Positions 4,647-41,903 of a stretch of 43,058 nt of DNA are shown here, piece by piece. Under the pieces are notes generated by a model. The model did not search any database and was not told the DNA's origin. It worked only from the letters and a program-made list of their open reading frames with translations. Position 1 is the first letter of the stretch. Each line of letters starts with the position of its first letter. Both the position numbers and the translations under genes were made by a program. This DNA is from Solirubrobacterales bacterium (GTDB taxonomy: Bacteria; Actinomycetota; Thermoleophilia; Solirubrobacterales; 70-9): assembly GCA_036393155.1 (NCBI GenBank), contig DASVWP010000280.1:1-43058 (forward strand), in the 5' to 3' direction.

Positions 4647-5771
4647 ATGAAAAGACTTTTCCCGACCACTCTGATCGCTGTCGTCGCGCTGCTCGCGACC
4701 CTGCTCTTCGCCACCCAGCAGGGCGACGCCAAAACCGTCTTCCACGCGCCGAGGAACTTCTTCGGCATCACTCCCCAGACCGGGGTCACGCCCCAGGAAG
4801 CCCGCTGGATGAAGGCCGGGGGGATCGGCGCGATCCGCCTCTCGCTGCCCTGGGCCTCGATTCAGCCGACGCCGAACGGCAAGTACAACTGGAGCGGCTT
4901 CGACTCGGCCCTCGAAACCGCTTCCCGCGCCGGTCTGGAAGTCCTGCCCTCGATCGGCTCGCCGCCCCGCTGGGCGACGCGCAGGGAACAGACGATGCCG
5001 ATCGACAGCGCACGGGCGCGCAACGGCTGGACCGCCTTCCTGAAGGCCGCGGTCAAGCGCTACGGGCCGGGCGGGGAATTCTGGGCCGAACACGCCACCG
5101 AAGGGGTCAACTACGAACCGGCGATCACGCGCCCGATCCCGATCCGCCAGTGGCAGATCTGGAACGAGTCGAATTTCTTCTACTTCGCCTACCCGGTCTC
5201 ACCGCACCGCTATGGCAAGCTGGTGACGATCTCCAGCCAGGCGATCAAAAGCGTCGACCCGGGCGCCAAGGTGGTGCTGTCGGGGCTGTTCGGCCAGCCC
5301 ACCGCGAGCGGTAAGAAAGGGATGCCGGCGGCGACCTTCCTGCGGCAGCTCTACCGCTATCCCGGCATCAAGGCGCGCTTCGACGGGGTTTCGCTGCACC
5401 CCTACGCGGTCGACGCCGAAACGCTCGAAGAACTGGTCGAAGAATTCCACGAAGTCAGCGTCGAAAACCACGACCGGCCGGGCTTCTACATCACCGAGAT
5501 GGGCTGGGGCTCGCAGAACGACTTCCAGCACGACGCTTTCGAGCAGGGGATCCAGGGGCAGGCCCGGGAGCTGCGGGAATCGTATGAATTCCTGCTCAGC
5601 AACCAGCACAGGCTGAACCTCAAGCAGGTCTACTGGTTCTCCTGGAAAGACGCCAAGGGGCTCTGCGACTTCTGCGACTCGGTCGGCCTGTTCCGCGAAG
5701 GCACGCGGTTCAAGCCGAAGCCCGCATGGCGAGCTCTGGTGTCGCTGACCGGTGGCCGCGCGCGCCCCTGA
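4647..5771 (+). CDS. Secreted clan GH-A-like (beta/alpha)8 glycoside hydrolase, family unassigned (paralog 1, 374 aa)
   Basis: It has an N-terminal signal-like segment (MKRLFPTTLIAVVALLATLLFA). WQIWNESNF is a candidate acid/base Asn-Glu motif and ITEMGWGS is a candidate nucleophile Glu motif. A C-terminal CDFC motif is present. It is a paralog of 41904..43028. Confidence 0.65.
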   Translation: MKRLFPTTLIAVVALLATLLFATQQGDAKTVFHAPRNFFGITPQTGVTPQEARWMKAGGIGAIRLSLPWASIQPTPNGKYNWSGFDSALETASRAGLEVLPSIGSPPRWATRREQTMPIDSARARNGWTAFLKAAVKRYGPGGEFWAEHATEGVNYEPAITRPIPIRQWQIWNESNFFYFAYPVSPHRYGKLVTISSQAIKSVDPGAKVVLSGLFGQPTASGKKGMPAATFLRQLYRYPGIKARFDGVSLHPYAVDAETLEELVEEFHEVSVENHDRPGFYITEMGWGSQNDFQHDAFEQGIQGQARELRESYEFLLSNQHRLNLKQVYWFSWKDAKGLCDFCDSVGLFREGTRFKPKPAWRALVSLTGGRARP

Positions 5772-7404
5772 GGGGCGGGGCCGCTGGGCGGCGCTGATTC
5801 TGCTCCTGGGCGCCGCCGCGATCGCGGCGGCGCTCCTGCTGTCCTTTTCCTCCGGGCTGGCGCCCTTCCAGGACAGCTGGGAGTTCCTGATGCACCGGCG
5901 CGACCCCTCGGTCAGCGCCTACCTGGACCCCCACAACGAGCACATCGTGCTGATCCCGGTGGCGATCGAGCAGCTGGTGCTGCGGCTTTTCGGGATGGGT
6001 TCGACGACGCCCGAATTCGTCGTCCTCACGGCGCTCCTGCTCGCTGTCGCGGTTCTGCTCTTCGTCTACGTGGAGCGCCGTCTCGGCCCCTGGCCTGCGC
6101 TGATGGCGGCGGTGGCGATGCTCTTCCTCGGCCCGGCATGGCAGGACCTGCTGTGGCCCTTTCAGATCGGGTTCGTCGGCTCGGCGCTCTTCGGGATCGC
6201 GATGCTGCTGGCGCTGGAAGCCGAAAGCGAGCGGGGCGACCTCGCAGCCTGTGTCCTCCTGGCGATCTCGATCGGGTTCTCCAGCCTCGGCCTCCCCTTC
6301 GCCGTGGCCGCCGCGGTCGACGTGCTGCAGCGCCGACGCCCCCGGGGCCTGAGGCGGGCCTACCTCGTGGCGGCGCCGGTGCTGCTCTACGCGGTCTGGT
6401 ACCTCGGCTGGGGCCAGGACGCCGAAAGCCACCTCACCGCCCACCACGTCCTCGTCTCGCCGCGCTACGTGGCCGAAGGGCTGCGGGCCTCCGTCGACGC
6501 CCTGCTCGCCCTGGCGACGATCTTCAACGAAGCGGTCGGCCGCTCGAACTGGGGCTGGGTGGCGCTCGCGGCGGTGGTCGCCGGCCTCGCCTGGGCGACG
6601 ATCCGTCGCGGCAGCGTCCCATCGCGGGCCTGGCCCTCGCTGGCGGCGATGGCCGCCTTCTGGTTTCTCGCCGCCTTCAGCACGATGCCCGGTCGCGAGG
6701 CCTACTCGAGCCGCTACCTCTACGTCGGCGCGCTCTTCGTCCTCCTGGTCGCTGCCGACCTGCTCGCCGGCCTGCGCGCCCGCCGCTTGATCCTGGTGGC
6801 AGGCGGTGCGGTCGCGGTGGCGGTGGCCGTCCTCAACCTGCAGCCGCTGCGCGAAGGGCGCGACTTCTTCAAGTCCCAGACCGTGCTGACCAAGGCCGAT
6901 CTGGGGGCGATCGAGATCGCCCGGCGAACGGTCGAGCCGGGCTTCACCCTGCCGCCTGAAATCGCCGGCACCCCGTTCCTCAACGAAATCGAAGCCGGCG
7001 AGTACCTGCGGGCGGTGGACGAATACGGCTCGCCCGCCTACACCGCCTCAGAGCTGACCGCCGCTCCGGAGACCGGACGTCTGCAGGCGGACGTCGTGCT
7101 CGCCAACGCCCTGCCGGTGACGATCGAAGAAGGCGGCGCCGCAGCTCACCTTGGGGGTCCGGGGTGTCGCCGGCAGGGCGGGTCGTTTCCCGCATCTGGG
7201 CCGCTCCCACCGGGAACCACCGAGGTCCACTTCCTCCCGGGCCCACCCGGGACGATCGGCCTGCGTCGCTTCGCCGCTTCCGACGCGCTGGCGGACGAAG
7301 GTCTCGCCGGAGGCTCCACGACCGCGCTCGTGCTTCCCCGCGACCTCTCGCACCGACCCTGGCTGCTGCGGGTCGGCGGCGTCGAGGCGCTGGTCTGCCA
7401 TTAG
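5752..7404 (+). CDS. Uncharacterised polytopic membrane protein, family A paralog 1 (550 aa), GT-C-like architecture
   Basis: GTG start at 5752 overlaps the upstream gene by 20 nt. It has multiple hydrophobic helices followed by a C-terminal non-hydrophobic domain of about 170 aa. It shares motifs with 21517..23169 and 27176..28831: FQD(S/T)W.FL, PHNEH, LWPF(Q/E)I, GWG..AE.HLT.H, PGREA, GSPAY, and a C-terminal VC(H/R). Confidence 0.75.
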   Translation: MAARAPEGRGRWAALILLLGAAAIAAALLLSFSSGLAPFQDSWEFLMHRRDPSVSAYLDPHNEHIVLIPVAIEQLVLRLFGMGSTTPEFVVLTALLLAVAVLLFVYVERRLGPWPALMAAVAMLFLGPAWQDLLWPFQIGFVGSALFGIAMLLALEAESERGDLAACVLLAISIGFSSLGLPFAVAAAVDVLQRRRPRGLRRAYLVAAPVLLYAVWYLGWGQDAESHLTAHHVLVSPRYVAEGLRASVDALLALATIFNEAVGRSNWGWVALAAVVAGLAWATIRRGSVPSRAWPSLAAMAAFWFLAAFSTMPGREAYSSRYLYVGALFVLLVAADLLAGLRARRLILVAGGAVAVAVAVLNLQPLREGRDFFKSQTVLTKADLGAIEIARRTVEPGFTLPPEIAGTPFLNEIEAGEYLRAVDEYGSPAYTASELTAAPETGRLQADVVLANALPVTIEEGGAAAHLGGPGCRRQGGSFPASGPLPPGTTEVHFLPGPPGTIGLRRFAASDALADEGLAGGSTTALVLPRDLSHRPWLLRVGGVEALVCH

Positions 7405-8027
7405 GAGACGGGACTCAGGTCGCTGCCGATCGTCAGCCGCCTCAGGGGCGGCACCGTCGCGGCCTCGATCGCCACGGCGCCGGCGAACCCGGGTCGCATC
7501 TCCAGGTCGGCGACCGCGGCGCTGCGGCCGGCCGGAGCGCTTGCGAGGCCGACGCCGAGGCACTTGCCGAGCGCCTCGCGCCTTGCCCAGGCCGCGTAGA
7601 AGACCTCTGGCTGGGAGTCGGCGGAGGCGCTCCGCAGCGCCTCGATCTCCCCGGGGTCGAGCATCCGCCGGGCCAGCGCCTCGAAGTCCCGCTCGGGGTC
7701 GATCCACTCGACGTCGACGCCGACCTCGCGCTCCGAGGCGACCGCGACCAGCCCCAGGCCGTGGGAGTGGCTGAGGTTGAAGCGCAATCCCGCCACCGGA
7801 TCGGCCAGGCGCGGCTTGCCGCCGTCATCGACCCGCAGCTCGACCGCCGCCGGCTCGCTGCCCAGGTAGCCGGCGAGGATGCCGCGCAGCGCCCAGCGCG
7901 CGGCCGTCCAGCGCCGTTGCGAGAGCGGCCGCAGCTGGCGCTCGGTGCGCGCGCGCTCCTCCTCCGGCAGCTCCTCCTGGGGCGGCCAGCCCGTCGCGTC
8001 CAGGTTGGCTTCCCAGATGTCGAGCAC
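7401..8027 (-). CDS. 4'-phosphopantetheinyl transferase, Sfp-type
   Basis: GTG start at 8027 lies directly after the upstream TAA (junction TAAGTG). Motifs are GKPRL, FNLSHSHG, GVDVE and W.RREALGK. Confidence 0.8.
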   Translation of the reverse strand: MLDIWEANLDATGWPPQEELPEEERARTERQLRPLSQRRWTAARWALRGILAGYLGSEPAAVELRVDDGGKPRLADPVAGLRFNLSHSHGLGLVAVASEREVGVDVEWIDPERDFEALARRMLDPGEIEALRSASADSQPEVFYAAWARREALGKCLGVGLASAPAGRSAAVADLEMRPGFAGAVAIEAATVPPLRRLTIGSDLSPVS

Positions 8028-9556: not shown

Positions 9557-10648
9557 ATGGACCGAATCCTGATCACCGGCGGGGCGGGCTTCGTGGGCTC
9601 CAACCTGGCCGTCGCCCTCGCCTCCCGCCACCCGGAGTGGGAGGTCGTGGCGCTCGACAACCTCTACCGCAAGGGGTCGGCGCTCAACCTGCCCCGGCTC
9701 GCCGAGGCCGGCGTCGAGTTCCTGGAAGGCGACGTCCGCAACCCCGAGGACCTCGCCACCGTGCCGGCGATCTCGGCGATGGTCGAGTGCTCGGCCGAGC
9801 CCTCGGTGATGAGCGGGGTCGACGGCGACACCGGCTACCTGGTCCACACCAACCTCACCGGCGCCTACAACTGCCTGGAGCTGGCCCGCCGCGACGGCGC
9901 CTTCTTCCTCTTCCTCTCGACCAGCCGCGTCTACCCGGTCGCCCCGCAGGTGGATCTGAACCTGGAGGAGGCCGCGACGCGGTTCGAGCTCGCCTCCGAG
10001 CAGGACGTGCCGGGCGTCTCGCCGGCCGGCATTTCCGAGGCCTTCCCGCTGGACGGCGCGCGGACCCTCTACGGGACCACCAAGCTGGCGGCCGAGCTGC
10101 TGATCGAGGAGTACCGGAGCGGCCTCGGCGTCCCGGCGGCGATCGACCGCTGCGGCGTCATCGCCGGGCCCTGGCAGATGGGCAAGGTCGATCAGGGAGT
10201 GTTCACGCACTGGATGCTGGCCCACTATTTCCGAAACCCTCTGAACTACATTGGTTTCGGAGGGCATGGAAAGCAGGTGCGCGATCTTCTCCACGTCGAC
10301 GACCTGGTCGACCTCGTCGAGCGCCAGCTGCTCGACCCCGGCTCCTGGGACGGGCGGACCGTGAACGTCGGCGGCGGCCGCGAGTGCAGTCTCTCCCTGC
10401 TGGAGACGACCGAGATCTGCCGGCGCCTGACCGGCAACGAGGTGCCGATCGGCTCGGTGCGGGAGACGCGGCAGGGTGACGTGCCCGTATACCTTTCCGA
10501 CTGCGCAAGGCTTTTCAGCCTCGACGAATGGCGCCCCCGTCGCAGCGCCGAACAGGTGCTCGCCGACATCCACGAGTGGATCGCGGCGGACGAGGAGCGG
10601 ATCGCCGAGGCGCTCGAGATCAAATCCCCGACGGGGGGAAGGGAGTAG
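9557..10648 (+). CDS. NAD-dependent epimerase/dehydratase (extended SDR, CDP-paratose-2-epimerase-like)
   Basis: It has the Rossmann motif [12 protein letters not shown] and the catalytic motifs STSRVY and YGTTKLAAE (YxxxK). Confidence 0.85.
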
Positions 10649-10655
10649 GCAACGG

Positions 10656-11729
10656 ATGCCGGTAGCGATCATCACGGGGGCCGGGGGGCTGATCGGCTCG
10701 GAGGCGGTCGGGCACTTCGTCGGCGGGGGGTTCGACGTGGTCGGGATCGAGAACGACATGCGGGCGCAGTTCTTCGGGCCGGAGTCCTCGACCTCCCACG
10801 TGACCGAGCGCCTGGTCGCCGAGCATCCGGAGTTCCGCTGGGAGAACGCGGACATCCGCGACACCGAGCGGGTCGAGCAGATCTTCCGCCAGCACGCCGG
10901 CCAGATCGAGCTGGTCATCCACACCGCCGCCCAGCCCTCCCACGACTGGGCCGCCAGCGCCCCGCAGGTCGACTTCGGCGTCAACGCCAATGGCACCCTC
11001 AACTTGCTCGAGGCCGCCCGCGCCCACTGCCCGGACGCGCCCTTCGTCTTCTGCTCGACCAACAAGGTCTACGGCGACACCCCGAACCGGCTGCCGCTGG
11101 AATCGCTGGAGAAGCGCCTGGAGCTGCCCTCGGACCATCCCTATTACAAGGGCATCGACACCTCGATGTCGATCGACTCCTCGACCCACTCGCTGTTCGG
11201 CGTCTCCAAGGCGGCCGCCGACCTGCTGGTCCAGGAGTACGGCCGCTACTTCGAAATGCCCACGGTCGCCTTCCGCGGCGGCTGCCTGACCGGGCCCCAG
11301 CACGCGGGCGCGAAGCTCCACGGCTTCCTCGCCTACCTGATGAAGTGCGTGGTCACCGGCACGCCGTACACGGTCTTCGGCTACGAGGGCAAGCAGGTGC
11401 GGGACAACATCCACAGCGCCGACCTGATCGCCGCCTTCGACGCCTTCCGCCGCTCCCCGCGGCCGGCGGCTGTCTACAACATCGGCGGCGGTCGCTTCTC
11501 CAACTGCTCGATGTTGGAGGCGATCGAGGTCTGCGAGCGGATCGCCGGCCGCGAGCTCGACTGGCAGATGGGGGAGGAGCCGCGGATCGGGGACCACCGC
11601 TGGTGGATCTCCGACCTGGCGCCCTTCCAGGCCGACTACCCGGACTGGAACCTGCGCTACGGGATCGAGGAGATTCTGCGGGAGATGTACGAGCAGAACC
11701 TCGAGCGCTGGAGCGTGAGCGCCGCGTGA
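10656..11729 (+). CDS. NAD-dependent epimerase/dehydratase (extended SDR), second tandem copy
   Basis: ATG 10656 lies 7 nt after the upstream TAG and is preceded by the purine-rich GGGGGGAAGGGAG. Motifs are [19 protein letters not shown] and FGVSKAAAD. Confidence 0.85.
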
Positions 11730-12499
11730 AGCTCTCGGTGGTGATGCCGGCCCAGAACGAGGAGGGGTCGGTGGGGGCGACCGTCGAAGGGGTGGTCGCG
11801 GTCCTCGAGCGGGAGGGTGTCGACTACGAGGTGGTCGTCGTCAACGACGACAGCGAAGATTCGACCGAAGCCGTCGTCGCCGCGATCGGCATGGCGAACC
11901 CACGGGTCAGGGTCCACCGCTCCCATCTGGATCGGGGGTTCGGCAACGCGATCCGCGCCGGTCTCGACGTCTTCGAGGGCGACGCGGTGGCGATCGTGAT
12001 GGCCGACGCCTCCGACAACCCCGAGGACCTCGTGATGTACCACCGGATCCTCGAGGAGGGCTGGGACTGCGCCTTCGGCTCCAGGTTCATGCCCGGCGCG
12101 CGGGTCTACGACTACCCGCGGCTCAAGTACGTCGTCAACCGCCTGGCCAACCAGTTCATCCGAGTGCTGTTCCGCCACCGCTACAACGACACCACCAACG
12201 CCTTCAAGGCCTACCGGCGCGAGGTCATCGAGACGATTCAGCCCCTGCTCTCGAAGCACTTCAACCTCACGGTGGAGATGCCGCTGAAGGCGATCGTCCG
12301 CGGTCACTCCTACAAGGTGGTTCCCACCAATTGGACCAATCGCGCCGCGGGCGAGGCGAAGCTGAAGATGAAGGAGATGGGCAGCCGCTACCTCTTCATC
12401 GTCCTCTACGTCTGGCTGGAGAACGCGCTGAGCCGCGGCGATTACCGCGTGGCCCAGCACCAGCCGGTCCGCGATCGGACCGGCGAGCCCACCGGTTAG
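11726..12499 (+). CDS. GT2 polyprenyl-phosphate glycosyltransferase (DPM1/GtrB/ArnC-like lipid-linked sugar synthase)
   Basis: GTG 11726 overlaps the upstream TGA (GTGA). Motifs are [21 protein letters not shown], the ADASD acidic motif and [11 protein letters not shown] short hydrophobic segment, [10 protein letters not shown], lies near the C-terminus. Confidence 0.8.
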
Positions 12500-12508: not shown

Positions 12509-13168
12509 TCAGCTCTCGTTCGGTTCCCGGCGGCCGATCACCAGGAACTGCTTGCCCAGCAGTCGCCAGGCGAGCGGCGCTCCGAGGTAGGCCCGGGTCA
12601 GCGCCGGCGAGGCGGGCAGGCGACCGCGGAACGAGTACGGAAGGTACCGGGGGATGACCGTGGTTGGCTCGAAGCCGGCGGCGTAGAGGTGCTCGCCGAT
12701 CGAGCGGTCGGTCAGCGCCACGTAGTGATCGGCGCAGTCCCAGTAATCGCGCGAGCAGAAGCGGTAGTTGGGCCCCATCACGGCGATCCGGCCGCCGGGC
12801 TCCATCACGTCGCGCATCTTTTCCAGCACGGTCGCGATCGTCTCCTGGTTGGGCAGGTGCTCCAGGAAGTTCGACATGAAGACCCCGTCGAAGTGTTCGA
12901 GCGGCAGGTCGGCGTCGAGAATGGAGGCGGTCACGACTTTCGTGTCGGGCTTGTGGGCCGCCTCCGGGTAGCTGACCTCGTCGACCGCCCAGGTCTCGGG
13001 GGCCGGCACGGAGCCGATGAACTCGCCCCGTCCGGCTGCCGGGTCGAGGACCTTCTGCGGCCGGCCCATCAGCTCGTGGACGTGCGGGCTGATCTGCCGC
13101 CAGACGGCGATGCGCTCGTTCTGGTCGATGTCGCGGAAACGGAATCTGTAAAGGCGCTCGTAGTTCAC
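12509..13168 (-). CDS. Class I SAM-dependent methyltransferase
   Basis: Motifs are VLDPAAGRGEF, FMSNFLEHLP and GGRIAVMGPN. I prefer GTG 13168, which has TAGGCT 7 nt upstream, over the track start 13261, which would run into the divergent gene. Confidence 0.75.
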   Translation of the reverse strand: MNYERLYRFRFRDIDQNERIAVWRQISPHVHELMGRPQKVLDPAAGRGEFIGSVPAPETWAVDEVSYPEAAHKPDTKVVTASILDADLPLEHFDGVFMSNFLEHLPNQETIATVLEKMRDVMEPGGRIAVMGPNYRFCSRDYWDCADHYVALTDRSIGEHLYAAGFEPTTVIPRYLPYSFRGRLPASPALTRAYLGAPLAWRLLGKQFLVIGRREPNES

Positions 13169-13220
13169 GCGCGCAAGCCTATTGACCGCGACCGCTGGGA
13201 GATTGGCTAGCCTGCCGCCG
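13169..13220. promoter_or_regulatory. 52-bp divergent region with back-to-back -10-like boxes
   Basis: TAGGCT on the minus strand (plus coordinates 13176-13181) lies 7 nt from GTG 13168. TAGCCT (13208-13213) lies 7 nt from ATG 13221. Confidence 0.45.
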
Positions 13221-14243
13221 ATGGAGGCATCGCAGCAGTCGACGCTGGGCGCTCGCGGCAAGGAGCTGGCCCGGGCGGTGGCCCGGCGGTTCGGCTACGA
13301 GATCCACCCGGCCGGGGCGGCCATGCCCGGGCCCGACCCTTCCCAGGTCTCGATTCCGCGGGGCCGCGACGAGCGCTTCGAGGTGGAGGGTGAATACGAA
13401 GTACTGCCCAGGGGCCGCTACGACGTGGTCGCCCGCAACTACTACAGCCCGATCCCCGACCTCGAGCTGCTGCCCGAGGACATCTGGGACCGGCGCAGCG
13501 CCGCTGGCGGCGTCGATCTGCAGCTCGACCGGGCGATGGAGACGATCGAGGGCGAGCTCGCCCCATTTATCGCCGAGATGGACGTGCCGCTCTCGGGGCC
13601 GGCGCCTCCAGGGCGGTTCTTCCTGCGCAACGAAAACTACGAGGCGGTGGACGCCGAGCTGCTGTACGCGATGGTCCGGTCCCGCAAGCCGCGGCGGGTG
13701 CTCGAGCTCGGATCCGGGTACACGACGCTGCTGATCGGCGACGCTTGCCGCCGCAACGTCGCGGAGGGACGGCCCACCGAGCACATCGCGTTCGACCCAT
13801 ACCCAAGGGCCCACATCGTCGGCGACGGGCCACCCGAGCCGACCGTCTTCGAGCCGATCTCGGCGAACGACGTCCCGCTGGATCGCTTCAGCGAGCTGGG
13901 CACGGGGGACATCCTCTTTGTCGACACCACGCACACGGTGAAGCTCGGCAGCGACGTCAACCACATCGTCCTGGACATCCTGCCGAGCCTCGCCTCGGGC
14001 GTTCTCGTCCACTTCCACGACATCTTCATCCCCTGGGAGTACCCCCGGGGCTGGTTCGAGGAGATGCAGTACTACTGGGCCGAGCAGTACCTCCTGCAGG
14101 CGTTCCTCGCCTTCAACGACAGCTTCGAGGTGGTCCTGCCGGCAATGGCGGTGGCCCGCGAGTTCCCCGAGCGGCTGGGGGCTGTCGTGCCGAGTCTCGC
14201 TCCCGGTACCAGCCCCGGGGCCTTCTGGATCGTTCGCAAATAA
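13221..14243 (+). CDS. Class I SAM-dependent methyltransferase (Methyltransf_24/CmcI-like)
   Basis: Motifs are VLELGSGYTTLLI, ILFVDTTHTV, VLVHFHDIF and YWAEQYLLQAFL. I prefer ATG 13221 over the TTG at 13182. Confidence 0.7.
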   Translation: MEASQQSTLGARGKELARAVARRFGYEIHPAGAAMPGPDPSQVSIPRGRDERFEVEGEYEVLPRGRYDVVARNYYSPIPDLELLPEDIWDRRSAAGGVDLQLDRAMETIEGELAPFIAEMDVPLSGPAPPGRFFLRNENYEAVDAELLYAMVRSRKPRRVLELGSGYTTLLIGDACRRNVAEGRPTEHIAFDPYPRAHIVGDGPPEPTVFEPISANDVPLDRFSELGTGDILFVDTTHTVKLGSDVNHIVLDILPSLASGVLVHFHDIFIPWEYPRGWFEEMQYYWAEQYLLQAFLAFNDSFEVVLPAMAVAREFPERLGAVVPSLAPGTSPGAFWIVRK

Positions 14244-14255
14244 GCCCGTCGCGGT

Positions 14256-15032
14256 TCAGCGGCTGCGGCGCCAGGAAGCACCGGTCCAGTCGATCGTCTC
14301 GATCGGCTCCGTGATGCCGTTTGCCTGGCGGAAGTCGGTAACAGCCTCGCGGCACTGCGGGATCGCCCCGTAGTCGTCGATCACCACGAACCCGCCCGGG
14401 GAGAGGTCCGGGTAGAGGCTTTCGAGCGAGACGATCGTGGACTCGTACATGTCGCCGTCGAGTCGCAGCAACGACCACCGCTGGTTGCCGCGCAGGGGTG
14501 GCAGGGACTCGCTGAACCAGCCCCGCAGGAAGCGCACGCCCTGGTCGGAGATGCCGTACCTCTCGAATGCTGCGCGAACCTCGGCTTCGGAGACGGCCAG
14601 GAAGTCGAATTCGAAGTGCTCGTCGCTGCCGGCATCAGCGGGGTACTCCTCTGGTCGGGAGGGGGGGAGTCCTTCGAAGGAGTCGGCCAGCCAGACCTCT
14701 CGCCCCGCTTCGCCCAGGCCGTTGAGGAGCGCCCGCATGAATATGGAGGCCCCGCCCCGCCAGACTCCGGTCTCGATGAGGTCCCCCTCGATCCCGTCCT
14801 CGACGATCGCTTCCACGCAGGCCTGGAGATGGTCGAGGCGACGCAGCCCGACCATCGTCGTCCCGTTGAACGGCCAGTCTGCCCCCGTTTCCCTTCGCTC
14901 GAGCTCGGACGTGGGCAGGGGCTCGGGCTTGACGCTCCCGTCGGGTTGGGGGACCGCAGACATCGTCTGAGGTCCCAGCAGGTCACAAAGCCCTCGCTTG
15001 AGCAGCGTCAGGTATGCGGCTCGCCCGTCCAA
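14256..15032 (-). CDS. TylF/macrocin-type SAM-dependent O-methyltransferase (paralog 2)
   Basis: It aligns end to end with the 1566..2357 product and by eye is roughly two-thirds to three-quarters identical. The TTG start at 15032 sits at the position homologous to the paralog's ATG. A TAGAGT box lies 8 nt upstream. Confidence 0.85.
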   Translation of the reverse strand: MDGRAAYLTLLKRGLCDLLGPQTMSAVPQPDGSVKPEPLPTSELERRETGADWPFNGTTMVGLRRLDHLQACVEAIVEDGIEGDLIETGVWRGGASIFMRALLNGLGEAGREVWLADSFEGLPPSRPEEYPADAGSDEHFEFDFLAVSEAEVRAAFERYGISDQGVRFLRGWFSESLPPLRGNQRWSLLRLDGDMYESTIVSLESLYPDLSPGGFVVIDDYGAIPQCREAVTDFRQANGITEPIETIDWTGASWRRSR

Positions 15033-15106
15033 GTGCCGGAACTCTAGCCGTCGACAGGCGCCAGGGGCGCCTGGAAGCCGACGATCCGGTTGCTACGCTC
15101 CCGGCG
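15033..15106. promoter_or_regulatory. Divergent promoter region with two -10-like boxes flanking a perfect 8-bp palindromic hairpin
   Basis: TAGAGT on the minus strand is at plus coordinates 15041-15046. CAGGCGCC-AGG-GGCGCCTG is at 15055-15073. TGCTACGCT, an extended -10-like element, is at 15091-15099, 7 nt from ATG 15107. Confidence 0.45.
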
Positions 15107-16150
15107 ATGACCGATGCCTCTGCGGAGCGGAATCCCTCTGCGGCGCGTTACGACTTCGAAAAGATCGATCTGGCGTCGGACAGCGTTCATGCCGACGTCG
15201 TTCGCCTGGTCGGGGAGAACAAGCGGGTGCTTGAGCTGGGCCCCGCCACCGGGTACATGTCGCGCGTCTTCCGCGAGCGCGGCTGCAGCGTCGTCGGCAT
15301 CGAGATCGACGCCGAGATGGCCGAGCGCGCGGGCGAGTTCTGCGAGCGGGTGATCGTCGGCGACCTCGATGCGCTGGACCTCGCGGCGGAGTTGGGCGAC
15401 GAACGATTCGACGCGATCGTCGCCGCCGACGTGCTCGAGCACCTGCGGGACCCGCTGGCCGCGCTGACCAGTCTGCGCCCCTTTCTCGCCGCGGATGGAG
15501 CCTTCGTGATCTCGGTCCCCAACGTCGCCCACGGCAGCGTGCGCCTCGCGCTCCTGACAGGGCACTTCGACTACCGCGAGATCGGCCTCCTCGACTCCAC
15601 TCACCTGCGGTTCTTCACCCGTGAGACCTTCGAGGGCCTTCTCGACGAAGCCGAGCTCGGGCTCGCCGAGCTTCATCGGCACGACCTCAACCTCGACGCA
15701 TCCGAGGTCCCGTTCGACGCCGAGGCGATCCCTCTCGCCGTCAGGGAGCGCCTGGAGAGCGACCCGGACGCCCGGACCTACCAGTTCGTCGCCAAGGCGA
15801 TCCCGATGGATCGCGACGGTCTGCGCGAGATCCAGGCCCGGCTCCGGGAGCTGGCCGAGCTGCGGCTGGCCGCCGCTCGTGCGGCGGAGCTGGAGGACAA
15901 GATCGCCAAGATCGGGCAGCGCGAGGGCGAGCTCCGCAAGGCGCTGGTCGAGGCGCACGATCAGCTGCTGCGGCGAGACGCGCAGATCGAGGAGCTGCAC
16001 GGAGACGCGGTCCGGCGCGACGAGGAGATCAGGCGCGTGCACGCCCAGCTGCACGAGACCCAGTCTTACCTCGAGGGGATCCGCAGGAGCCCGTTCGGGT
16101 TCCTCTACAGGGTGCAGCAGGTGCTGCAGCGGATGCTGCGGGGGAGATGA
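15107..16150 (+). CDS. Class I SAM methyltransferase fused to a long C-terminal coiled coil and terminal amphipathic basic helix (WbdD-like chain-terminator architecture)
   Basis: The methyltransferase motifs are VLELGPATGYMS, AADVLEHL and GAFVISVPN. A heptad-rich, charged segment then spans about 15821-16078 (REIQARLRELAELRL...HAQLHETQSYLEG). The protein ends FGFLYRVQQVLQRMLRGR. Its stop overlaps the next ATG (ATGA at 16147-16150). Confidence 0.75.
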   Translation: MTDASAERNPSAARYDFEKIDLASDSVHADVVRLVGENKRVLELGPATGYMSRVFRERGCSVVGIEIDAEMAERAGEFCERVIVGDLDALDLAAELGDERFDAIVAADVLEHLRDPLAALTSLRPFLAADGAFVISVPNVAHGSVRLALLTGHFDYREIGLLDSTHLRFFTRETFEGLLDEAELGLAELHRHDLNLDASEVPFDAEAIPLAVRERLESDPDARTYQFVAKAIPMDRDGLREIQARLRELAELRLAAARAAELEDKIAKIGQREGELRKALVEAHDQLLRRDAQIEELHGDAVRRDEEIRRVHAQLHETQSYLEGIRRSPFGFLYRVQQVLQRMLRGR

Positions 16151-24048: not shown

Positions 24049-25340
24049 TTGTCCTGGCCCTGCTCGATAACCGTTTCGTACTCGCAGTGGGGGGCGATGA
24101 TGCCGCGTCCCTGCGGTGCTCCGTAGATCACGAAGCTGGCTGCGCGAGGGACGTAATGCGAGATCCCAAACGCACTCTGGATGCCGACGTGGATGAAATG
24201 GCGCCCTGGGGCAAGGGGGTTGTCGATCATCGCCGAGACGACGAGGCGGTCGCCCTGGATCGGCTCCCCGTCGTCTGAGCTCACCGGCACCCCGAGTTCG
24301 AACATCGAGACGTCGTCGGCGTTGGCAACCACGATCCCGACGTGCAGGACGGAGACCTTGCGCAGCAGTTCGGCCTCGACCCGTACCTTCAGGCGTTCCC
24401 CCAGCTCGAGGTTGTTGTCGGCGGCGGCCTCTCCGGAGATCGTGCAGGACAGCAGCCGAGCACCATCCCCCTCTCCGGCGCTGGGTTCACCGCCGGCCGT
24501 GGACGTTTCGCCGGCGAAGTTGAGCTTTAGGTACTCGCGTCCCGTTTCCGCTGGGGCGCCGATGTGTTGGATCTTGCCGTCGCTGAGCAGCATCGCGCGG
24601 TGGCAGTACTCCTCGACCGCGCCCATCTCGTGGGTCACCAGGACGATCGTTTTGCCTTCGCCTTTCATTCGGTGAAACGCGTCAGCGCACTTCTGCTGGA
24701 AGGACGCGTCGCCGACTGCCAGGACCTCGTCGATCAGCAGGACGTCGGCTTCGGCCTCCATCATCACCGCGAAGGCCAGCCGCACGAGCATCCCGGAGGA
24801 GTAGTTCTTCAGCTTCAGGTCGGCGAAATCGTGCAGCTCCGCAAAATCGATCACCGCATCGAGGCGGTGTCGCACCTCCCTGGGGGTGAGTCCCATCATC
24901 ACCCCGTTGAGGACGACGTTTTCCCGCGCGGTCAGTTCGTGGTTGAACCCCACTCCGAGCTCGATGAAGGGAGCCAGCCGGCCCGCGATCTGGATGCTGC
25001 CGCTGTCGGCGCGATAGATGCTCGCCAGGAGTTTCAGCAGGGTGCTCTTGCCGGAGCCATTGCGGCCGACGATGCCGAAGAACTCGCCCTGGTGGATTTC
25101 GAAGGAGATCCCGTTGAGGGCGTGCAGCTCGCGGTAGTCGCGGACCGCGAACGGGTGCACGACCCGCTCTTTCAGGGAATCCACGCGATTCGTGGGGATG
25201 CGGAACGACTTGTGCAGGTTCTCGACGCGGATCGCCGGGGCCGTCGTCGGAGTCGACGGCGCGCTGATGCTCGGAGCGGCGATTGCGTTTTCGGCGGACA
25301 TGGGGGGATGGCGCTCTGCGGAGCTCGCTCCTCGGCGCAT
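24045..25340 (-). CDS. wzt: Polysaccharide ABC exporter ATP-binding protein with C-terminal extension (Wzt-type, putative glycan-cap-binding module)
   Basis: Walker A is GRNGSGKST, the signature is YSSGM and Walker B is VLLIDE. An extra beta-rich region of about 150 aa follows the NBD (about 24045-24485). I prefer ATG 25340, which has TAGTGT 7 nt upstream. An alternative ATG is at 25301. The rest of ORF 24045..25973 is shadow sequence. Confidence 0.85.
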   Translation of the reverse strand: MRRGASSAERHPPMSAENAIAAPSISAPSTPTTAPAIRVENLHKSFRIPTNRVDSLKERVVHPFAVRDYRELHALNGISFEIHQGEFFGIVGRNGSGKSTLLKLLASIYRADSGSIQIAGRLAPFIELGVGFNHELTARENVVLNGVMMGLTPREVRHRLDAVIDFAELHDFADLKLKNYSSGMLVRLAFAVMMEAEADVLLIDEVLAVGDASFQQKCADAFHRMKGEGKTIVLVTHEMGAVEEYCHRAMLLSDGKIQHIGAPAETGREYLKLNFAGETSTAGGEPSAGEGDGARLLSCTISGEAAADNNLELGERLKVRVEAELLRKVSVLHVGIVVANADDVSMFELGVPVSSDDGEPIQGDRLVVSAMIDNPLAPGRHFIHVGIQSAFGISHYVPRAASFVIYGAPQGRGIIAPHCEYETVIEQGQDK

Positions 25341-25394
25341 TGACGGAACACTACCGCGAGCCTCGGGTTGCGGTATCTGCGAAGCTGCTGAGCA
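25341..25394. promoter_or_regulatory. Divergent intergenic region between wzt and the family B membrane protein gene
   Basis: A TAGTGT -10-like box on the minus strand (plus coordinates 25348-25353) lies 7 nt from ATG 25340. I found no convincing box for the plus-strand gene. Confidence 0.35.
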
Positions 25395-27176
25395 ATGGTG
25401 GAGGGTGAACTTCTCGCCCTGCTCGTGATCCACCTTCTGTTGACGGGTCTGCCTGGTGTGGCGGCGGCTCTGCTGGTAGCGAGCAGGGGTGAGCGCCGCG
25501 AGCCGGTGCTCTTGGGTGTTGCCCTGGTGGGCTCCGGCGCCGCGGCAATGCTCGCGTTCTGGGGCTATTACGGGAGCCACGAGCTGGGCGAGACGGCCTC
25601 CTTCTTCGTCGCCTTCGGCTCGCTTCTGCTGAGTGGCTGGTTGCTGCGCACGGGCGGCATCGACAGGGCGCTGTTGCGCCGGCTGGCCGTCCCGTTGGCG
25701 CTGTGGGCGCTGGGATCGGCCTTCCTCGTCTATCTCGGCTTCCTCCACGGCGGCACGCGGGAACCGTTGAGCCTCGCCTCGATCCGGTTCTCGGGGCAGC
25801 TGCCCAGCGACAACCAGATCCCCCGCTTCTTCTCGGAATGGTTCTTCAGCCACGGACACCAGAGCCCACCGCCCGAGTTCCCCGGTGAATGGCTGGCCAG
25901 CGACCGGCCGCCTCTGCAGGTCGGCTACGCCTTGCTCGAGCGCCCCTTTGGCTGGGATTCCAGCGGGCTTCACTACCAGGTCATGGGGGTCGTACTGCAG
26001 CAGCTCTGGATCGTCGGCCTATGGGCTCTGCTGGTTGCGGGTCGCGCCGGCCGGCTTACGCGGGGGCTGGCGATGTTGACCGTCTTGGTCTCCGACCTGG
26101 CGATCGTCAACGGCTTCTTCGTCTGGCCCAAGCTCTTGCCTGCGGCGATGCTCCTGGCCGCGGCGGCGCTGGTGCTGACTCCACTCTGGCCCGACGTGCG
26201 GCGCAGTTCCTGGGGCGCTGCCCTGCTTGCGGCCCTGCTCGGCCTCGCGATGATGGGACACGGTGGGAGCGTGTTCGGGGTGATTCCGTTGGCGGCGATC
26301 GCGCTCGCCCGCGGCGGCCTGCCGAGCTGGCGCTGGCTAGGGGTCCTGATCGCGGTCGGGATCCTCTTCGTCGGTCCCTGGAGCGCCTATCAGCGCTGGG
26401 GCGACCCTCCCGGCGACCGCCTTGCCAAGTGGATGCTCGGCGGCGTCTCCGAAGTCGATGGCCGCAGCAGCTTGCAGGCGATCACCGACTCCTATCGAGA
26501 AATCGGGCTCGGCGGCACCCTCCACTACAAGGCGGAGAATTTCGTCTCGATTGTCGGAGGCGGGCCGATGATCGAAGACCTCGAACACAGCTTCGAAGAA
26601 CTGAAGGCCGGGCGGCTCGGGGGCGCGGCGGCGTTCATTCGGGCGATCCTCTTCTACTACCTGCTGCCGTCGCTCGGGTTGATGCTCGTCGGCCTGGGCG
26701 CGATCGCCGCCAGCTGGCGGCGCCGCGCCCGCGACCCCGCGGAGTGGAGCCTCGCGCTCTGGTGCCTGGCCGCCTTCATGGTCGGAGCCGTCGTATGGGC
26801 GCTCCTGATGTTCGGGCGCAACGGCGCCGGGGCTGTGATCCACCAAGGAAGCCTGGTGATCCCGATCTTCGGCTTCTGCGCCGCCGCGGTGGGTGTCCGC
26901 GCCGTGTACCCACGCTTTGGCACCTGGTTGATGGGGGTAAATGCGGCGCTGATGCTGGCGCTCCATGCCCCGATGCTCACCCCTATGCCCGGGGTGGCGT
27001 ACTCGGCTTGGGCCGGCCTGTTGGCCGCCGGCGCCCTGGTCGGTTTCTGCTTGGTCGCCCTGCGTGCCGGGGAGATCCGCGCGCGGGTTGCGGAGCCGGT
27101 GCCGGTCTCCGGCGGCCAGGGTGCCCCGGGTTCGGCGCTCGCACGCCGGACCTCGCGGTTAGACTCGCGCGCCTGA
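25395..27176 (+). CDS. Uncharacterised polytopic membrane protein, family B paralog 1 (593 aa), GT-C-like
   Basis: It is highly hydrophobic with 12 or more predicted helices by eye. It shares the motifs SDRPPL/SSRGPL, (F/T)WPKLL and MMGHG/LMHPC with 30705..32489. Its stop overlaps the next ATG (TGATG at 27174-27178). Confidence 0.7.
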   Translation: MVEGELLALLVIHLLLTGLPGVAAALLVASRGERREPVLLGVALVGSGAAAMLAFWGYYGSHELGETASFFVAFGSLLLSGWLLRTGGIDRALLRRLAVPLALWALGSAFLVYLGFLHGGTREPLSLASIRFSGQLPSDNQIPRFFSEWFFSHGHQSPPPEFPGEWLASDRPPLQVGYALLERPFGWDSSGLHYQVMGVVLQQLWIVGLWALLVAGRAGRLTRGLAMLTVLVSDLAIVNGFFVWPKLLPAAMLLAAAALVLTPLWPDVRRSSWGAALLAALLGLAMMGHGGSVFGVIPLAAIALARGGLPSWRWLGVLIAVGILFVGPWSAYQRWGDPPGDRLAKWMLGGVSEVDGRSSLQAITDSYREIGLGGTLHYKAENFVSIVGGGPMIEDLEHSFEELKAGRLGGAAAFIRAILFYYLLPSLGLMLVGLGAIAASWRRRARDPAEWSLALWCLAAFMVGAVVWALLMFGRNGAGAVIHQGSLVIPIFGFCAAAVGVRAVYPRFGTWLMGVNAALMLALHAPMLTPMPGVAYSAWAGLLAAGALVGFCLVALRAGEIRARVAEPVPVSGGQGAPGSALARRTSRLDSRA

Positions 27177-28831
27177 TGGCGCTGCGGAGACGCGATGCAC
27201 CGGTTCTGTTGCTCGGTGCGGCCCTGGCAGGGGCCGCCGCGCTGCTGATCGCGCTGACCTGGGAACTCACCTTCTTCCAGGACACCTGGGCTTTCCTGAT
27301 GGAAAGGCAGGGCTCTTCGCTGCACGACTTCCTGGCACCGCACAACGAGCACCTCGTGGTGTTCCAGGTCGCCCTGGAGAAGCTGCTGATCAACACCTTC
27401 GGGATGACCACCGCTCATCCCGAACTGTTTGTGATGATCGCCATGCTGCTGGCCAACGGCGCGCTTCTGTTCGCGTACGTGCGCCGCCGCCTGGGGGACT
27501 GGTCGGCATTGATGATGGCCGCCCTGCTGCTCTTCCTCGGCTCGGCCTGGCAGGTCCAGCTTTGGCCGTTCGAGATCGAGTTCGTGGCCCCGATCATGAC
27601 CGGGCTGGGAGTCCTGCTGTTGCTCGAACGCGAGGATCGCCTGGGGGACGCTTGGGCTTGCCTGCTGATCGTCATCGGCATCGGCTTTGGCAGCCTCGGT
27701 TTGTCCTTCGCATTGGCGGCGGCGGCCGATGTTTGGGTCAGACGGCGCGAGCGGGGTCTTTGGAGCCGGCTCTGGATCGTCGTCGTTCCCTTTGTCCTCT
27801 ACGGCCTCTGGTACGTCGGCTGGGGCCACGAAGCCGAACACCACTTGACTCTGCACAACCTCCTGCGCCTGCCGCCTTACGTCTTGGAAGGTGTCGGCAC
27901 CGCCCTTGCGGCACTCAGCGGTCTGCTCACGCTCAACTTCAGCGGACCGAGCGATCCCTTCTGGGGCCGGCCGCTGATCATCGTCGTGGTCGCTCTGATT
28001 GCCTACGTGAAGTGGCGGCGCCCCGGGTTTGCCTGGACGCTCTGGCCGGTCCTCGTCGCCGCCTTCAGCTACTGGATCCTCGCCGGCCTCAACTACATCC
28101 CGGGCAGGGAAGCTTCCTCGCCGCGCTATGTCTACGCCAGCGCCGCCTTCGTCCTGATGGTGAGCGCGGAGCTCCTGCGCGGGTCGCGGTTGAGTCGGCG
28201 CGGAATTCTGATCGCCGGAGCGCTGACGGCCGTCGCGGTGATGCCGAATCTGGCTCAAATGAAGGAAGGAGCCGATTGGCTGAAGGAACAGACGGTGCTC
28301 ACCCGCGCTGACACCGGCGCAATCGAAATCGCCAGCCGCACGGTCGAACCGTCGTTCAGATTGACGCCGGAACTCGCCGGCACCCCTTCGTTGGTCAACG
28401 TCGACGCCGGTGATTACCTGTCCGCTGTCGAAGCTCACGGCTCCCCTGCCTACTCGCCCGTCCAGCTGGCCGCCACCCGCGAAGTCGGTCGACACTGGGC
28501 GGACGTGGTCCTGGCCCGAGCTCTTCCGGTTTCGCTGGAAACGGAATTCGGCACCTACGCGCACGCGGCCGCCCGGAGCTGCACTGCGATCGCTCCCGGC
28601 TCGGCTCCTCCGGCGGGCGTGGAACTGGCACCCGGCTCAACCAAAATTGAAGTCGCTCCCGGGCCGCCCGTGAGCTTCAGCCTCCGTCGCTTCGCGGTAG
28701 CCGAATTCCCCGTCAAAACCTCCGGCGCCCCAGGCGAATCAACCAGCTACATCGGGATCCCACACGACCGCGCTTCCCAGCCGTGGTTCCTGCATCTCGA
28801 AGCTCAGCAGCCCGTTCGGGTCTGTCGCTGA
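27176..28831 (+). CDS. Uncharacterised polytopic membrane protein, family A paralog 3 (551 aa)
   Basis: ATG 27176 lies within the track's 980-aa ORF 25889..28831. The protein begins MALRRRDAPVLLLG... and carries the full family A motif set. The upstream 429 aa of the track ORF are an out-of-frame shadow of the preceding gene. Confidence 0.8.
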   Translation: MALRRRDAPVLLLGAALAGAAALLIALTWELTFFQDTWAFLMERQGSSLHDFLAPHNEHLVVFQVALEKLLINTFGMTTAHPELFVMIAMLLANGALLFAYVRRRLGDWSALMMAALLLFLGSAWQVQLWPFEIEFVAPIMTGLGVLLLLEREDRLGDAWACLLIVIGIGFGSLGLSFALAAAADVWVRRRERGLWSRLWIVVVPFVLYGLWYVGWGHEAEHHLTLHNLLRLPPYVLEGVGTALAALSGLLTLNFSGPSDPFWGRPLIIVVVALIAYVKWRRPGFAWTLWPVLVAAFSYWILAGLNYIPGREASSPRYVYASAAFVLMVSAELLRGSRLSRRGILIAGALTAVAVMPNLAQMKEGADWLKEQTVLTRADTGAIEIASRTVEPSFRLTPELAGTPSLVNVDAGDYLSAVEAHGSPAYSPVQLAATREVGRHWADVVLARALPVSLETEFGTYAHAAARSCTAIAPGSAPPAGVELAPGSTKIEVAPGPPVSFSLRRFAVAEFPVKTSGAPGESTSYIGIPHDRASQPWFLHLEAQQPVRVCR

Positions 28832-28848: not shown

Positions 28849-29685
28849 TCACGCTTTATCGCTGAACAACCGCGTTGCGCGTCGTCGCCATGCCCGCAGC
28901 CCGTTGGTCGCTGGCAGCGGCGGGTGCTCCATCGGATTCGGCGGCGGCATCTGGCCCTGCTTGCGCAGCACGACCATGAACTCGATTCCCTGACGGGCCC
29001 CCGCCTCGAGGTCGAAGGACTCCCCGAAGCGTTCCCGGCAGTGGAGGATCAGGCGCATGAACTCGGCCTGGGTCCAGACATGCATGTGTATCGAGTAAGC
29101 CTTCGCTTCCAGGTCGCGAGCATGGGCTAGGCATTCCTCGTCGGTCTGGCCCTCCTTCGCCTCGACCAGCCGCGACCACTCGTCGTAGTGCTGGCGGCGT
29201 GAGCGCTCCGGCCCCTCCTCGTAATCGGCGATCACGTGCTCCAGCGGCGTCACCGGGCGGCGGAAGTCGAAGGTGAATCGCTTGTCGGGCACGGCGTAGA
29301 AGAGGGTTCCTCCTCCTCTTAGCCTGGCGAGATGGGTCTCAATCGTGCGGATCGGGTTCTCGCAGTGCTCCAGAAAGTGATTGGCGACGATGAAGTCCTG
29401 CGATCCTTCAGCAGCCGTCGCCAGGCGCTCGCCATCGTCAACGAGGTCCACTGGGGTGAGGTCCCAGTCGGCGAGCTCGGGGTACTCCCGCCTCAGGTCG
29501 TCGATCGGCATCCGATCGACGTATCGCGCTCGGGCGGTCGGGGGCAGGGTCAGCGGCTGGTGGAGCGGCCCGATCTCGAGGCCTTCTCCGAACAGGAAGC
29601 GATCGGCGAGCTCACGGCGGGCGTCGAGGTACAGGGGCGGGGCGGGGGAAGGCCCTGCCTGTGTCTCCCCTGGAGGCTGATTCAT
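28849..29685 (-). CDS. Class I SAM-dependent methyltransferase
   Basis: Motifs are GLEIGP, IVANHFLEH and GGTLFYAVPDKR. ATG 29685 has a TAGCCT box 7 nt upstream. The upstream part of ORF 28849..29868 is low-complexity sequence. Confidence 0.75.
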   Translation of the reverse strand: MNQPPGETQAGPSPAPPLYLDARRELADRFLFGEGLEIGPLHQPLTLPPTARARYVDRMPIDDLRREYPELADWDLTPVDLVDDGERLATAAEGSQDFIVANHFLEHCENPIRTIETHLARLRGGGTLFYAVPDKRFTFDFRRPVTPLEHVIADYEEGPERSRRQHYDEWSRLVEAKEGQTDEECLAHARDLEAKAYSIHMHVWTQAEFMRLILHCRERFGESFDLEAGARQGIEFMVVLRKQGQMPPPNPMEHPPLPATNGLRAWRRRATRLFSDKA

Positions 29686-29746
29686 CCCCGAGAGGCTATC
29701 TGGAGGGACAAGCGCATCAGACCCAAGTGCTGTCAGGCTTGCAGCC
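29686..29746. promoter_or_regulatory. Divergent intergenic region between the methyltransferase and GT2 genes
   Basis: TAGCCT on the minus strand (plus coordinates 29693-29698) lies 7 nt from ATG 29685. I found no clear element for the plus-strand GTG at 29747. Confidence 0.35.
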
Positions 29747-32489: not shown

Positions 32490-32555
32490 GATCCACCTCT
32501 CGCGTCCGATTCTCAAAACGATCCTGACTCCCGCTCGAGGGCCACGCTCGCCAGG

Positions 32556-33482: not shown

Positions 33483-33518
33483 CGCTCCTTCTCTCAGTGG
33501 GTAGGGTTGCAGCCTCGC

Positions 33519-34595: not shown

Positions 34596-34608
34596 TGGGG
34601 GTCATGGC

Positions 34609-41872: not shown

Positions 41873-41903
41873 GCCCGTGCTGAAATCGAGGAGGTACACC
41901 AAG

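Follow-up and report, generated by a model that had tools for sequence, protein, structure and literature searches.

In arabinogalactan assembly, several glycosyltransferases of the GT-C fold share one lipid-linked donor and work on a polymer, the rhamnose-containing primer of which leaves the cell through a Wzm/Wzt-type transporter. In the GtrA/B/C, CsbB/GtcA/YfhO, GacI/J/K/L and CsdAB/CD/EF with CflA systems, a GT2 polyprenyl-phosphate sugar synthase is found with a polytopic GT-C enzyme, which decorates a rhamnan-type polymer exported by an ABC transporter (PMC10821137, PMC11127046), and GacL, CsdB/D/F and WpsJ are functional precedents that act on rhamnans of Gram-positive bacteria (PMC10821137). 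The founder of CAZy family GT136, the 652-residue ORF12 of Citrobacter youngae O1, has 11 transmembrane (TM) helices, with a helical domain behind TM1 and a beta-type carbohydrate-binding module at the C-terminus (Kelly et al. 2024, PMC11127046). ORF12 modifies the finished O antigen post-polymerization in the periplasm; D31, E34, H106 and R349 are essential and the Y350A variant is nearly inactive, and its partners are a phosphoribosyl pyrophosphate (PRPP)-dependent UbiA-type polyprenyl phosphoribose synthase and a MATE flippase (PMC11127046). Here, a 43,058-nucleotide stretch from a Solirubrobacterales bacterium (GenBank assembly GCA_036393155.1, contig DASVWP010000280.1; the window, approximately 70% G+C) was analyzed, together with three paralogous membrane proteins that it encodes, designated family A. 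We consider it likely that these are extracytoplasmic GT-C glycosyltransferases, which move a sugar from a polyprenyl-phosphate sugar, made by the GT2 enzyme at 11726-12499 with two short-chain dehydrogenase/reductase (SDR) proteins, to a rhamnose-containing glycan exported by Wzm/Wzt. The paralogy, predicted GT-C fold, charge-bias topology, residue conservation and gene context computed here support this reading.

The three family A open reading frames (ORFs) were present on the forward strand, with lengths of 550, 550 and 551 amino acids, exactly as an earlier sequence-only reading of this DNA had reported (Table 1). Their third-position GC of 0.89 is typical for true genes in 70% GC DNA. 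In end-to-end alignment, paralogs 1 and 2, 1 and 3, and 2 and 3 were 46%, 47% and 51% identical, respectively, with a mean column identity of 70%; on alignment evidence, the paralogy is far above chance level. The motifs listed in that reading were all found in the paralog alignment, namely F(F)QD(S/T)W, PHNEH, (L/I)WPF(Q/E)I, GD..AC, GWG(H/Q)..AE.HLT.H and PGREA...RY.Y, followed by (H/Y)GSPAY, (Q/R)PW.L, an internal Cys and a C-terminal V-C-(H/R). Its description of the family as triplicated is correct for the window, which does hold three copies, but it is specific to the window: related genomes mostly carry two orthologue groups, some with a third divergent clade.

When paralog 1 was modeled with AlphaFold2, with a 49-sequence alignment as input, the mean predicted local distance difference test score (pLDDT) was 89.4, the predicted template modeling score (pTM) was 0.89 and no segment fell below 50. 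Foldseek comparison of this model to the PDB gave probabilities of 0.98-1.00 and TM-scores of 0.35-0.44 for EmbA/B, EmbC, ArnT, Pmt4, AftA, STT3 (human and yeast), AglB, PglB and ALG9. The top matches were EmbA-EmbB 7bvf (E 4.5e-4) and EmbC 7bve; Pmt1/2 were also matched, and the probability for ALG12 was lower, at 0.69. No non-GT-C fold class scored confidently in the same search, in which MFS, LeuT and channel structures had probabilities of 0.15 or less and TM-scores of approximately 0.1. The assignment rests on the uniformity of these matches, because the TM-scores are modest and there is no close superposition. These findings support, at the level of a predicted fold, the placement of family A in the GT-C superfamily, as the sequence-only reading had proposed from the many helices, a conserved loop Asp and the C-terminal domain; the permease or other non-glycosyltransferase class that it had named as the contrary outcome did not emerge from AlphaFold and Foldseek.

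Helix boundaries were taken from the model, and the charged amphipathic helix 230-251 was assigned to an outer loop and not counted as a membrane span, leaving 11 TM helices. A crude hydropathy count was dropped as too noisy, and the model helices were combined with charge statistics instead. Over the 49-sequence alignment, the net charge of the predicted cytoplasmic loops CL1, CL3, CL4 and CL5 was +2.6, +3.8, +2.5 and +2.1, respectively, compared to -2.5 for EL1 (34-85), -4.0 for EL4 (220-266) and -5.9 for the C-terminal region on the outer side. This charge bias supports a predicted topology with a cytoplasmic N-terminus, in which the QD loop and the C-terminal domain face outward, as do the remaining conserved loops; PHNEH, WPFE, GWGH..AE.H and PGREA..RY are all in outer loops. 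The positive-inside statistics over these 49 homologues thus agree with the earlier view that the conserved QD loop is extracytoplasmic and not cytoplasmic.

Conservation followed the same side of the membrane. Among close homologues there were 56 invariant columns, only about five of them on the cytoplasmic side. In 134 representatives with 28-50% identity to paralog 1, the positions conserved in at least 93% were D41, W43, R49, G81, G127, G148, A166, P209, W216, P237, G253, W304, R321, Y322, G426, D447, C472, R506, W537 and C549, nearly all of which are on the outer side. D41 was invariant in 71 diverse members and present in 96% of the 134 representatives, and D447, C472, W537 and C549 were also invariant in the 71. 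In GT-C enzymes the catalytic position is classically that of an invariant Asp a few residues beyond TM1. D41 occupies it as a conserved acidic residue in the predicted first extracytoplasmic loop just after TM1, a helical loop that also carries PHNEH. After the last helix the model has a helix-plus-beta-sandwich domain (residues ~390-550), in agreement with the soluble C-terminal domain described before. The disulfide proposed earlier fits this model because the two invariant Cys are in the predicted extracytoplasmic beta sandwich (strands 458-549), which a C472-C549 bond probably stabilizes. This extracytoplasmic domain probably binds the glycan acceptor.

In architecture, ORF12 is the closest described analogue of family A. 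The family A model shares this layout, with 11 TM helices, the first followed by a helical domain and the last by a beta-rich C-terminal domain. In both proteins, a candidate catalytic Asp comes just behind TM1 (D31 in ORF12 and D41 in family A), and the R349-Y350 pair of ORF12 has a near-invariant counterpart in R321-Y322. Fragments of ORF12 rebuilt from mutagenesis primers, QLG-D31-GH-E34-Y35 and LR-AEVFQ-R349-Y350, can be set beside FQ-D41-SW-E-F and GR315-EAYSS-R321-Y322 of family A; an R-x5-R-Y spacing and a D-x-x-E-aromatic pattern are common to both, a motif resemblance that, between short primer-derived fragments, may serve as a lead. Searched at the DNA level, E. coli genomes gave no match to a 76-nt ORF12 fragment rebuilt from the primers. 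The two differ in that ORF12 is proteobacterial and 652 residues long, whereas family A is actinobacterial and 550 residues long. Moreover, Pfam scans of all window genes found neither of the GT136 partner genes (PRPP-dependent synthase and MATE flippase), a GT2 synthase being present instead, and the donor for family A would come from this DPMS/GtrB-type enzyme.

Compared to Pfam-A and NCBIfam, paralogs 1-3 gave no model at or near threshold and noise only, and PDB sequence searches with 49- and 71-sequence family A profiles returned no solved relative, only spurious integrin, IFT74 and coiled-coil matches. The absence of an assignable named family, as first reported for these proteins, was thus borne out for every Pfam, NCBIfam and PDB sequence model tried. 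When 71 diverse members were scanned singly, 16 sub-threshold matches were obtained, to DUF6057 (5), PMT_2 (4), YfhO (3), PTPS_related (2), DUF2142 (1) and DUF6056 (1). The best E values were 0.002 for DUF2142, 0.008 for PMT_2 and 0.012 for DUF6057, all below cut-offs. PMT_2 and YfhO are GT-C families, and DUF6057, PTPS_related, DUF2142 and DUF6056 are ones that we take to belong to the GT-C clan, so these matches may be read as a faint signal in the GT-C direction. The other outcome named beforehand as contrary, membership of a known GT-C family, did not appear at threshold in the Pfam, NCBIfam or PDB models, GT136 having been compared by its published description and primer fragments only. 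The sequence family thus appears to be undescribed, and the kind of enzyme known.

Family A is large. When 5.8 billion proteins were searched through a word index, at least 1,058 relatives were obtained, not one of which had a precomputed Pfam domain; nearly all were named 'hypothetical protein', and the remaining names were mutually contradictory (MFS permease, YuzD, MYXO-CTERM). An exhaustive profile search of 1.84 billion representatives at 50% identity gave 5,053 clusters at E of 0.001 or less and 1,680 at E of 1e-30 or less. Among species-representative genomes, 152 stretches encode relatives, and the locus comparisons rest on the 80 loci retained from these. All 80 were from Solirubrobacterales, Conexibacteraceae or unclassified actinobacterial metagenome-assembled genomes (MAGs), several of them closed chromosomes of approximately 2.5 Mb. 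A literature search found no study of the envelope glycans of Solirubrobacterales and related MAGs. Two fusions, GT2-family A (P0172) and Wzy_C-family A (P0153), were considered as Rosetta stones and set aside as possible gene-calling artefacts; they were taken as uninformative because both are singleton clusters on short contigs, with partner domains unlike the GT2 or Wzy_C genes of the window.

The lipid-sugar synthase to which the sequence-only reading had drawn attention is a real gene. Its best NCBIfam matches were AglJ, haloarchaeal Dol-P-hexose transferase, PgfS, ArnC and PpgS, and its best PDB matches were Pyrococcus DPMS 5mlz (E 2e-19), ArnC and GtrB; the nearest characterized relatives are all polyprenyl-phosphate sugar synthases. 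In 53 of the 80 loci, it and a family A gene were no more than 10 kb apart. Two SDR genes, epi1 and epi2, are directly upstream, and Epi1-Epi2-GT2 is a trio conserved across related loci. From the co-location of this DPMS/ArnC/GtrB-like GT2 enzyme, we infer that family A probably uses a lipid-phosphate-linked sugar donor.

The window encodes five GT-C-fold proteins in three families, namely the three family A paralogs, a GT87-like protein and a 593-residue protein, U593. Compared to Pfam and NCBIfam, U593 had no match, and among its homologues, of which there are at least 1,324, a few had a marginal DUF6010 match. Its AlphaFold model had a pLDDT of 88 and a pTM of 0.90, with Foldseek probabilities of at least 0.98 to ALG12, Pmt4, ALG9, ArnT and AftB, and on this predicted structure U593 is a second unnamed GT-C-fold family. 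The GT87-like gene was found in 11 related loci.

Comparison of all window genes to Pfam, NCBIfam and the PDB identifies the window, by sequence similarity, as an ABC-transporter-type surface-glycan locus (Table 1). Several GT2 and GT4 enzymes are encoded, two of them double-GT2 proteins, and there are seven methyltransferase genes (two TylF-type O-methyltransferases and five other S-adenosylmethionine-dependent enzymes). This unusual methyltransferase density, together with a Wzt that has a Wzt_C domain, points to a glycan rich in O-methyl groups, possibly bearing a chain-terminating methyl cap. Several mechanically called ORFs overran the true starts, and the likely true genes are given in Table 1 beside the full ORFs; an apparent 580-nt overlap of wzt and U593 is an artefact, because the ORFs run upstream of the real starts. 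The start of the WbaP-like gene overlaps the stop of the Wzy_C/TPR gene. The small protein encoded between the double-GT2 gene and paralog 2 was found in only four related loci and, by analogy with other ABC-transporter glycan systems, may act in chain-length control or as a scaffold. Paralog 1 is followed immediately by a convergent 4'-phosphopantetheinyl transferase gene, which was also near A1-type genes in 24 related loci, a curious neighbor because the Emb proteins, the best structural matches, were solved bound to AcpM.

Table 1. Positions of the features of the window discussed in the text
Feature	Position	Strand	Remarks
Methyltransferase genes	1566-2360, 12509-16150, 28849-29868		TylF gene at 1566-2360; mechanical ORF 1566-2765
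Secreted clan GH-A-like hydrolase (PslG-like)	4647-5771	+	Signal peptide; weak Pfam GH42; NE/TE motifs; PslG E 1e-6; 20-nt overlap with paralog 1
Family A paralog 1 (A1 type)	5752-7404	+	550 aa; predicted GT-C fold, 11 TM helices, C-terminal beta domain
4'-Phosphopantetheinyl transferase	7401-8027	-	
Epi1, SDR nucleotide-sugar epimerase/dehydratase 1	9557-10648	+	Pfam Epimerase; CDP-tyvelose 2-epimerase E 9e-31
Epi2, SDR epimerase/dehydratase 2	10656-11729	+	Paralogous to Epi1; nearest CDP-tyvelose 2-epimerase; ORF 10476-11729, likely start 10656
GT2 polyprenyl-phosphate sugar synthase	11726-12499	+	257 aa; Pfam GT2; candidate maker of lipid-linked donor
Small protein	21144-21776	-	No Pfam match; coiled-coil-like C-terminus; likely start ~21467
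TAGACTCGCGC, -10-like element	21502-21512	+	9 nt before paralog 2 ATG
Family A paralog 2	21517-23169	+	550 aa; between double-GT2 gene and wzm; long branch basal to A3-like group
Wzm, ABC-2 permease of glycan exporter	23176-24048	-	Pfam ABC2_membrane; adjoins A2/A3-type genes in most loci
Wzt ATPase with Wzt_C carbohydrate-binding domain	24045-25301	-	Pfam ABC_tran, Wzt_C; ORF 24045-25973, likely start ~25301; orthologue 420 aa
U593, second GT-C-fold membrane family	25395-27176	+	593 aa; directly upstream of A3-type genes, conserved
TAGACTCGCGC, identical element	27160-27170	+	10 nt before paralog 3 ATG; inside 3' end of upstream gene
Family A paralog 3 (A3 type)	27176-28831	+	551 aa; ATG overlaps stop of upstream U593 gene (TGATG)
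GT87/PMT_2-like GT-C membrane glycosyltransferase	30705-32516	-	603 aa; Pfam GT87 E 1e-6, PMT_2 E 3e-5
rmlA, rmlD, rmlB, rmlC (dTDP-L-rhamnose)	33519-36994	+	Pfam NTP_transferase, RmlD_sub_bind, GDP_Man_Dehyd/Epimerase, dTDP_sugar_isom; likely rmlA 33519-34595, mechanical ORF 32763-34595
WbaP-like polyprenyl-phosphate sugar-1-phosphate transferase (initiating)	37882-39381	-	Pfam Bac_transf, CoA_binding_3; start inferred within 1,144-codon ORF (37882-41316)
Wzy_C (O-antigen ligase-like) membrane protein	39378-41465	-	Pfam Wzy_C E 2e-16; C-terminal TPR
Second PslG-like secreted clan GH-A-like hydrolase	41877-43028	+	Signal peptide; NE/TE motifs; paralog of 4647-5771; nearest solved relative PslG

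When the window proteins were mapped on the 80 loci, strong synteny was found with wzm/wzt, rml, GT2 genes and the Epi1-Epi2-GT2 trio. The A1 type is a monophyletic clade, its genes being a few kb from the trio and preceded by a secreted PslG-like hydrolase gene in 23 of 23 loci. The translational coupling of the PslG-like gene to paralog 1 and its presence before every A1-type gene suggest that hydrolase and GT-C protein are a working pair. The core order around A2/A3-type genes was double-GT2 (-); U593 and family A (+); wzm, wzt and methyltransferase (-); then GT2c and, further on, rmlA, rmlD and rmlB. By its sequence, paralog 2 is an extra, long-branched member in the window. In some Solirubrobacterales genomes there is a third family A clade, approximately 31% identical to paralog 3 (L004 15262-16878 and L029 10568-12196), whose genes adjoin an inverted copy of the GT2 synthase; family A therefore comprises at least three diverged subfamilies.

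Identical copies of a short element precede paralogs 2 and 3 (Table 1). It lies 8-11 nt upstream of A2/A3-type starts, with a general pattern of TA.A.TC.C.C, 3-7 nt and then ATG or GTG, and in relatives it is usually aaTACACTC(G/C)CGC...ATG, for example in L027, L047, L052 and L059 near position 9970. It was present at 34 of 59 A2/A3-type starts and at none of 23 A1-type starts, compared to only 37 occurrences in 3.19 Mb of related loci. The element is probably a -10 box (TANNNT) from which a leaderless mRNA would be made; a sigma-70 consensus scan at the element found no full promoter and no -35 consensus. The sequence upstream of paralog 2 was also considered as a remnant of a U593 3' end, and this was rejected, as only approximately 30 nt align.

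In the pathway that we favor, a rhamnose-containing, methylated glycan would be assembled on the cytoplasmic side, attached to a polyprenyl carrier, by the WbaP-like initiator, the GT2 and GT4 enzymes, the Rml pathway and the methyltransferases, and would be exported through Wzm/Wzt. In parallel, the GT2 synthase would load a sugar, expected to be tailored by the two tyvelose-epimerase-like SDRs, on polyprenyl phosphate. After the lipid-linked sugar is flipped, family A would transfer the sugar to the exported glycan at the outer face of the membrane, with D41 as the putative catalytic base, R321/Y322, possibly with R315 and H64, holding the donor phosphate, and the disulfide-bonded C-terminal beta domain holding the acceptor. 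The paralogs may differ in linkage or acceptor, the A1 type acting with the secreted PslG-like hydrolase and the A3 type with U593.

Several results weigh against this pathway. No GtrA-, Wzx/Polysacc_synt- or MATE-type flippase was found by Pfam in any window gene or in one canonical related locus. There is one recognizable polyprenyl-phosphate sugar synthase for five GT-C-fold genes (plus the Wzy_C/TPR gene), unlike the 1:1 side-chain systems. The TM-scores are only about 0.4, and no sequence model of a known GT-C family reached threshold in Pfam, NCBIfam or the PDB for the three paralogs and the 71 diverse members. Moreover, profile-profile comparison with hhalign showed no relationship of family A to the GT87-like family of the window or to U593, and for that reason the GT-C families of the window are not detectable paralogs of one another. 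The first two points are also where the window departs from the Gtr, Csb, Gac and Csd systems, which it resembles in having a GT2 polyprenyl-phosphate sugar synthase, at 11726-12499; in addition, YfhO and DUF2142 matches of family A are sub-threshold only. ArnT (GT83), whose partner ArnC is related to the nearby GT2 enzyme, is the best size-matched structural match (5f15, TM 0.43/0.44). In contrast to family A, ArnT lacks a comparable beta sandwich at its C-terminus, and it acts on lipid A, an acceptor that should be absent from monoderm Solirubrobacterales; sub-threshold PMT_2 matches were found in only four of the 71 family A members.

The 1:5 ratio of synthase to GT-C genes bears most directly on a line of thought modeled on arabinogalactan, for part of the cell-envelope glycan of Solirubrobacterales, in which a Wzm/Wzt-exported, rhamnose-containing primer would be extended and branched outside by at least five GT-C enzymes of three unrelated families that share one polyprenyl-phosphate sugar, made by one GT2 enzyme and two SDRs, and family A is an Emb/Aft-like chain builder for a non-arabinan polymer rather than a decorator. 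Given this ratio, shared-donor chain building of the Emb/Aft style therefore fits at least as well as simple decoration. The best structural matches of family A (7bvf, 7bve and 8if8) are among EmbA/B/C and AftA-D (GT53, GT85 and related), which are also actinobacterial and also combine a GT-C core with an extracytoplasmic C-terminal sugar-binding domain. Family A differs from them in having no Arabinose_trans or AftA Pfam match and half the size of Emb, and Pfam scans of the window found no UbiA, DprE1 or DprE2 genes for decaprenyl-phosphate arabinose; on balance we regard the chain-builder role as a possible but doubtful one. Separately, the five-to-one ratio is also reminiscent of how mycobacteria assemble arabinan or lipomannan.

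Transfer of a single sugar, as we favor it, has also to be set against en-bloc transfer, in which family A would be transferases or polymerases that move a whole oligo- or polysaccharide from polyprenyl (di)phosphate to glycan, peptidoglycan or lipid, as modeled on lactococcal WpsJ/WpsH and the oligosaccharyltransferases. STT3, PglB and AglB are indeed among the fold matches, A2/A3-type genes directly adjoin wzm/wzt in most genomes, such GT-C roles have been proposed in lactococci (PMC10821137), and one metagenomic protein fuses a Wzy_C domain to a family A domain, but that protein is a singleton on a short contig, possibly a gene-calling artefact. The best fold matches (Emb, ArnT, Pmt4 and AftA) have polyprenyl-monophosphate sugars as donors in every case, family A is accompanied by a dedicated polyprenyl-phosphate sugar synthase, and a Wzy_C/TPR ligase-like gene is already in the window, which together make en-bloc transfer improbable. 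The mixture of rml, wzm/wzt, methyltransferase, WbaP-like and Wzy_C genes resembles Geobacillus S-layer glycan loci, a context that would suit PMT-type O-glycosylation of secreted or S-layer proteins from a polyprenyl-phosphate sugar, as would the fold matches to Pmt4 and Pmt1/2 and the weak PMT_2 matches in four members. No PMT, PMT_2 or MIR-domain match reached threshold, however, the small beta sandwich at the C-terminus is nearer the carbohydrate-binding modules of Emb or GT136, and the coupled PslG-like polysaccharide hydrolase suggests that the substrate is a polysaccharide, so that a protein acceptor is very unlikely. That family A are not enzymes at all, being transporters, permeases or structural membrane proteins, is hardly tenable: a polytopic topology and one automatic JGI name ('MFS family permease' on one homologue) would agree with it, but no transporter domain of Pfam or NCBIfam was found in the family A members scanned, transporter and channel structures scored very low in Foldseek, and conservation is concentrated in the outer loops and the outer soluble domain, not along a membrane pore.

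These findings mean that a family of more than 5,000 clusters at 50% identity, nameless in Pfam, NCBIfam and the PDB, can now be assigned to the GT-C glycosyltransferases with reasonable confidence, with candidate catalytic residues (D41 and R321/Y322) and a defined gene neighborhood. The relatives are almost all from uncultured bacteria, and the cluster offers testable hypotheses on the making of their surface polymers. Biochemical characterization of the family would probably found a new CAZy family and could reveal whether extracytoplasmic assembly by multiple GT-C enzymes, to date a hallmark of Mycobacteriales, is more widespread in Actinomycetota.

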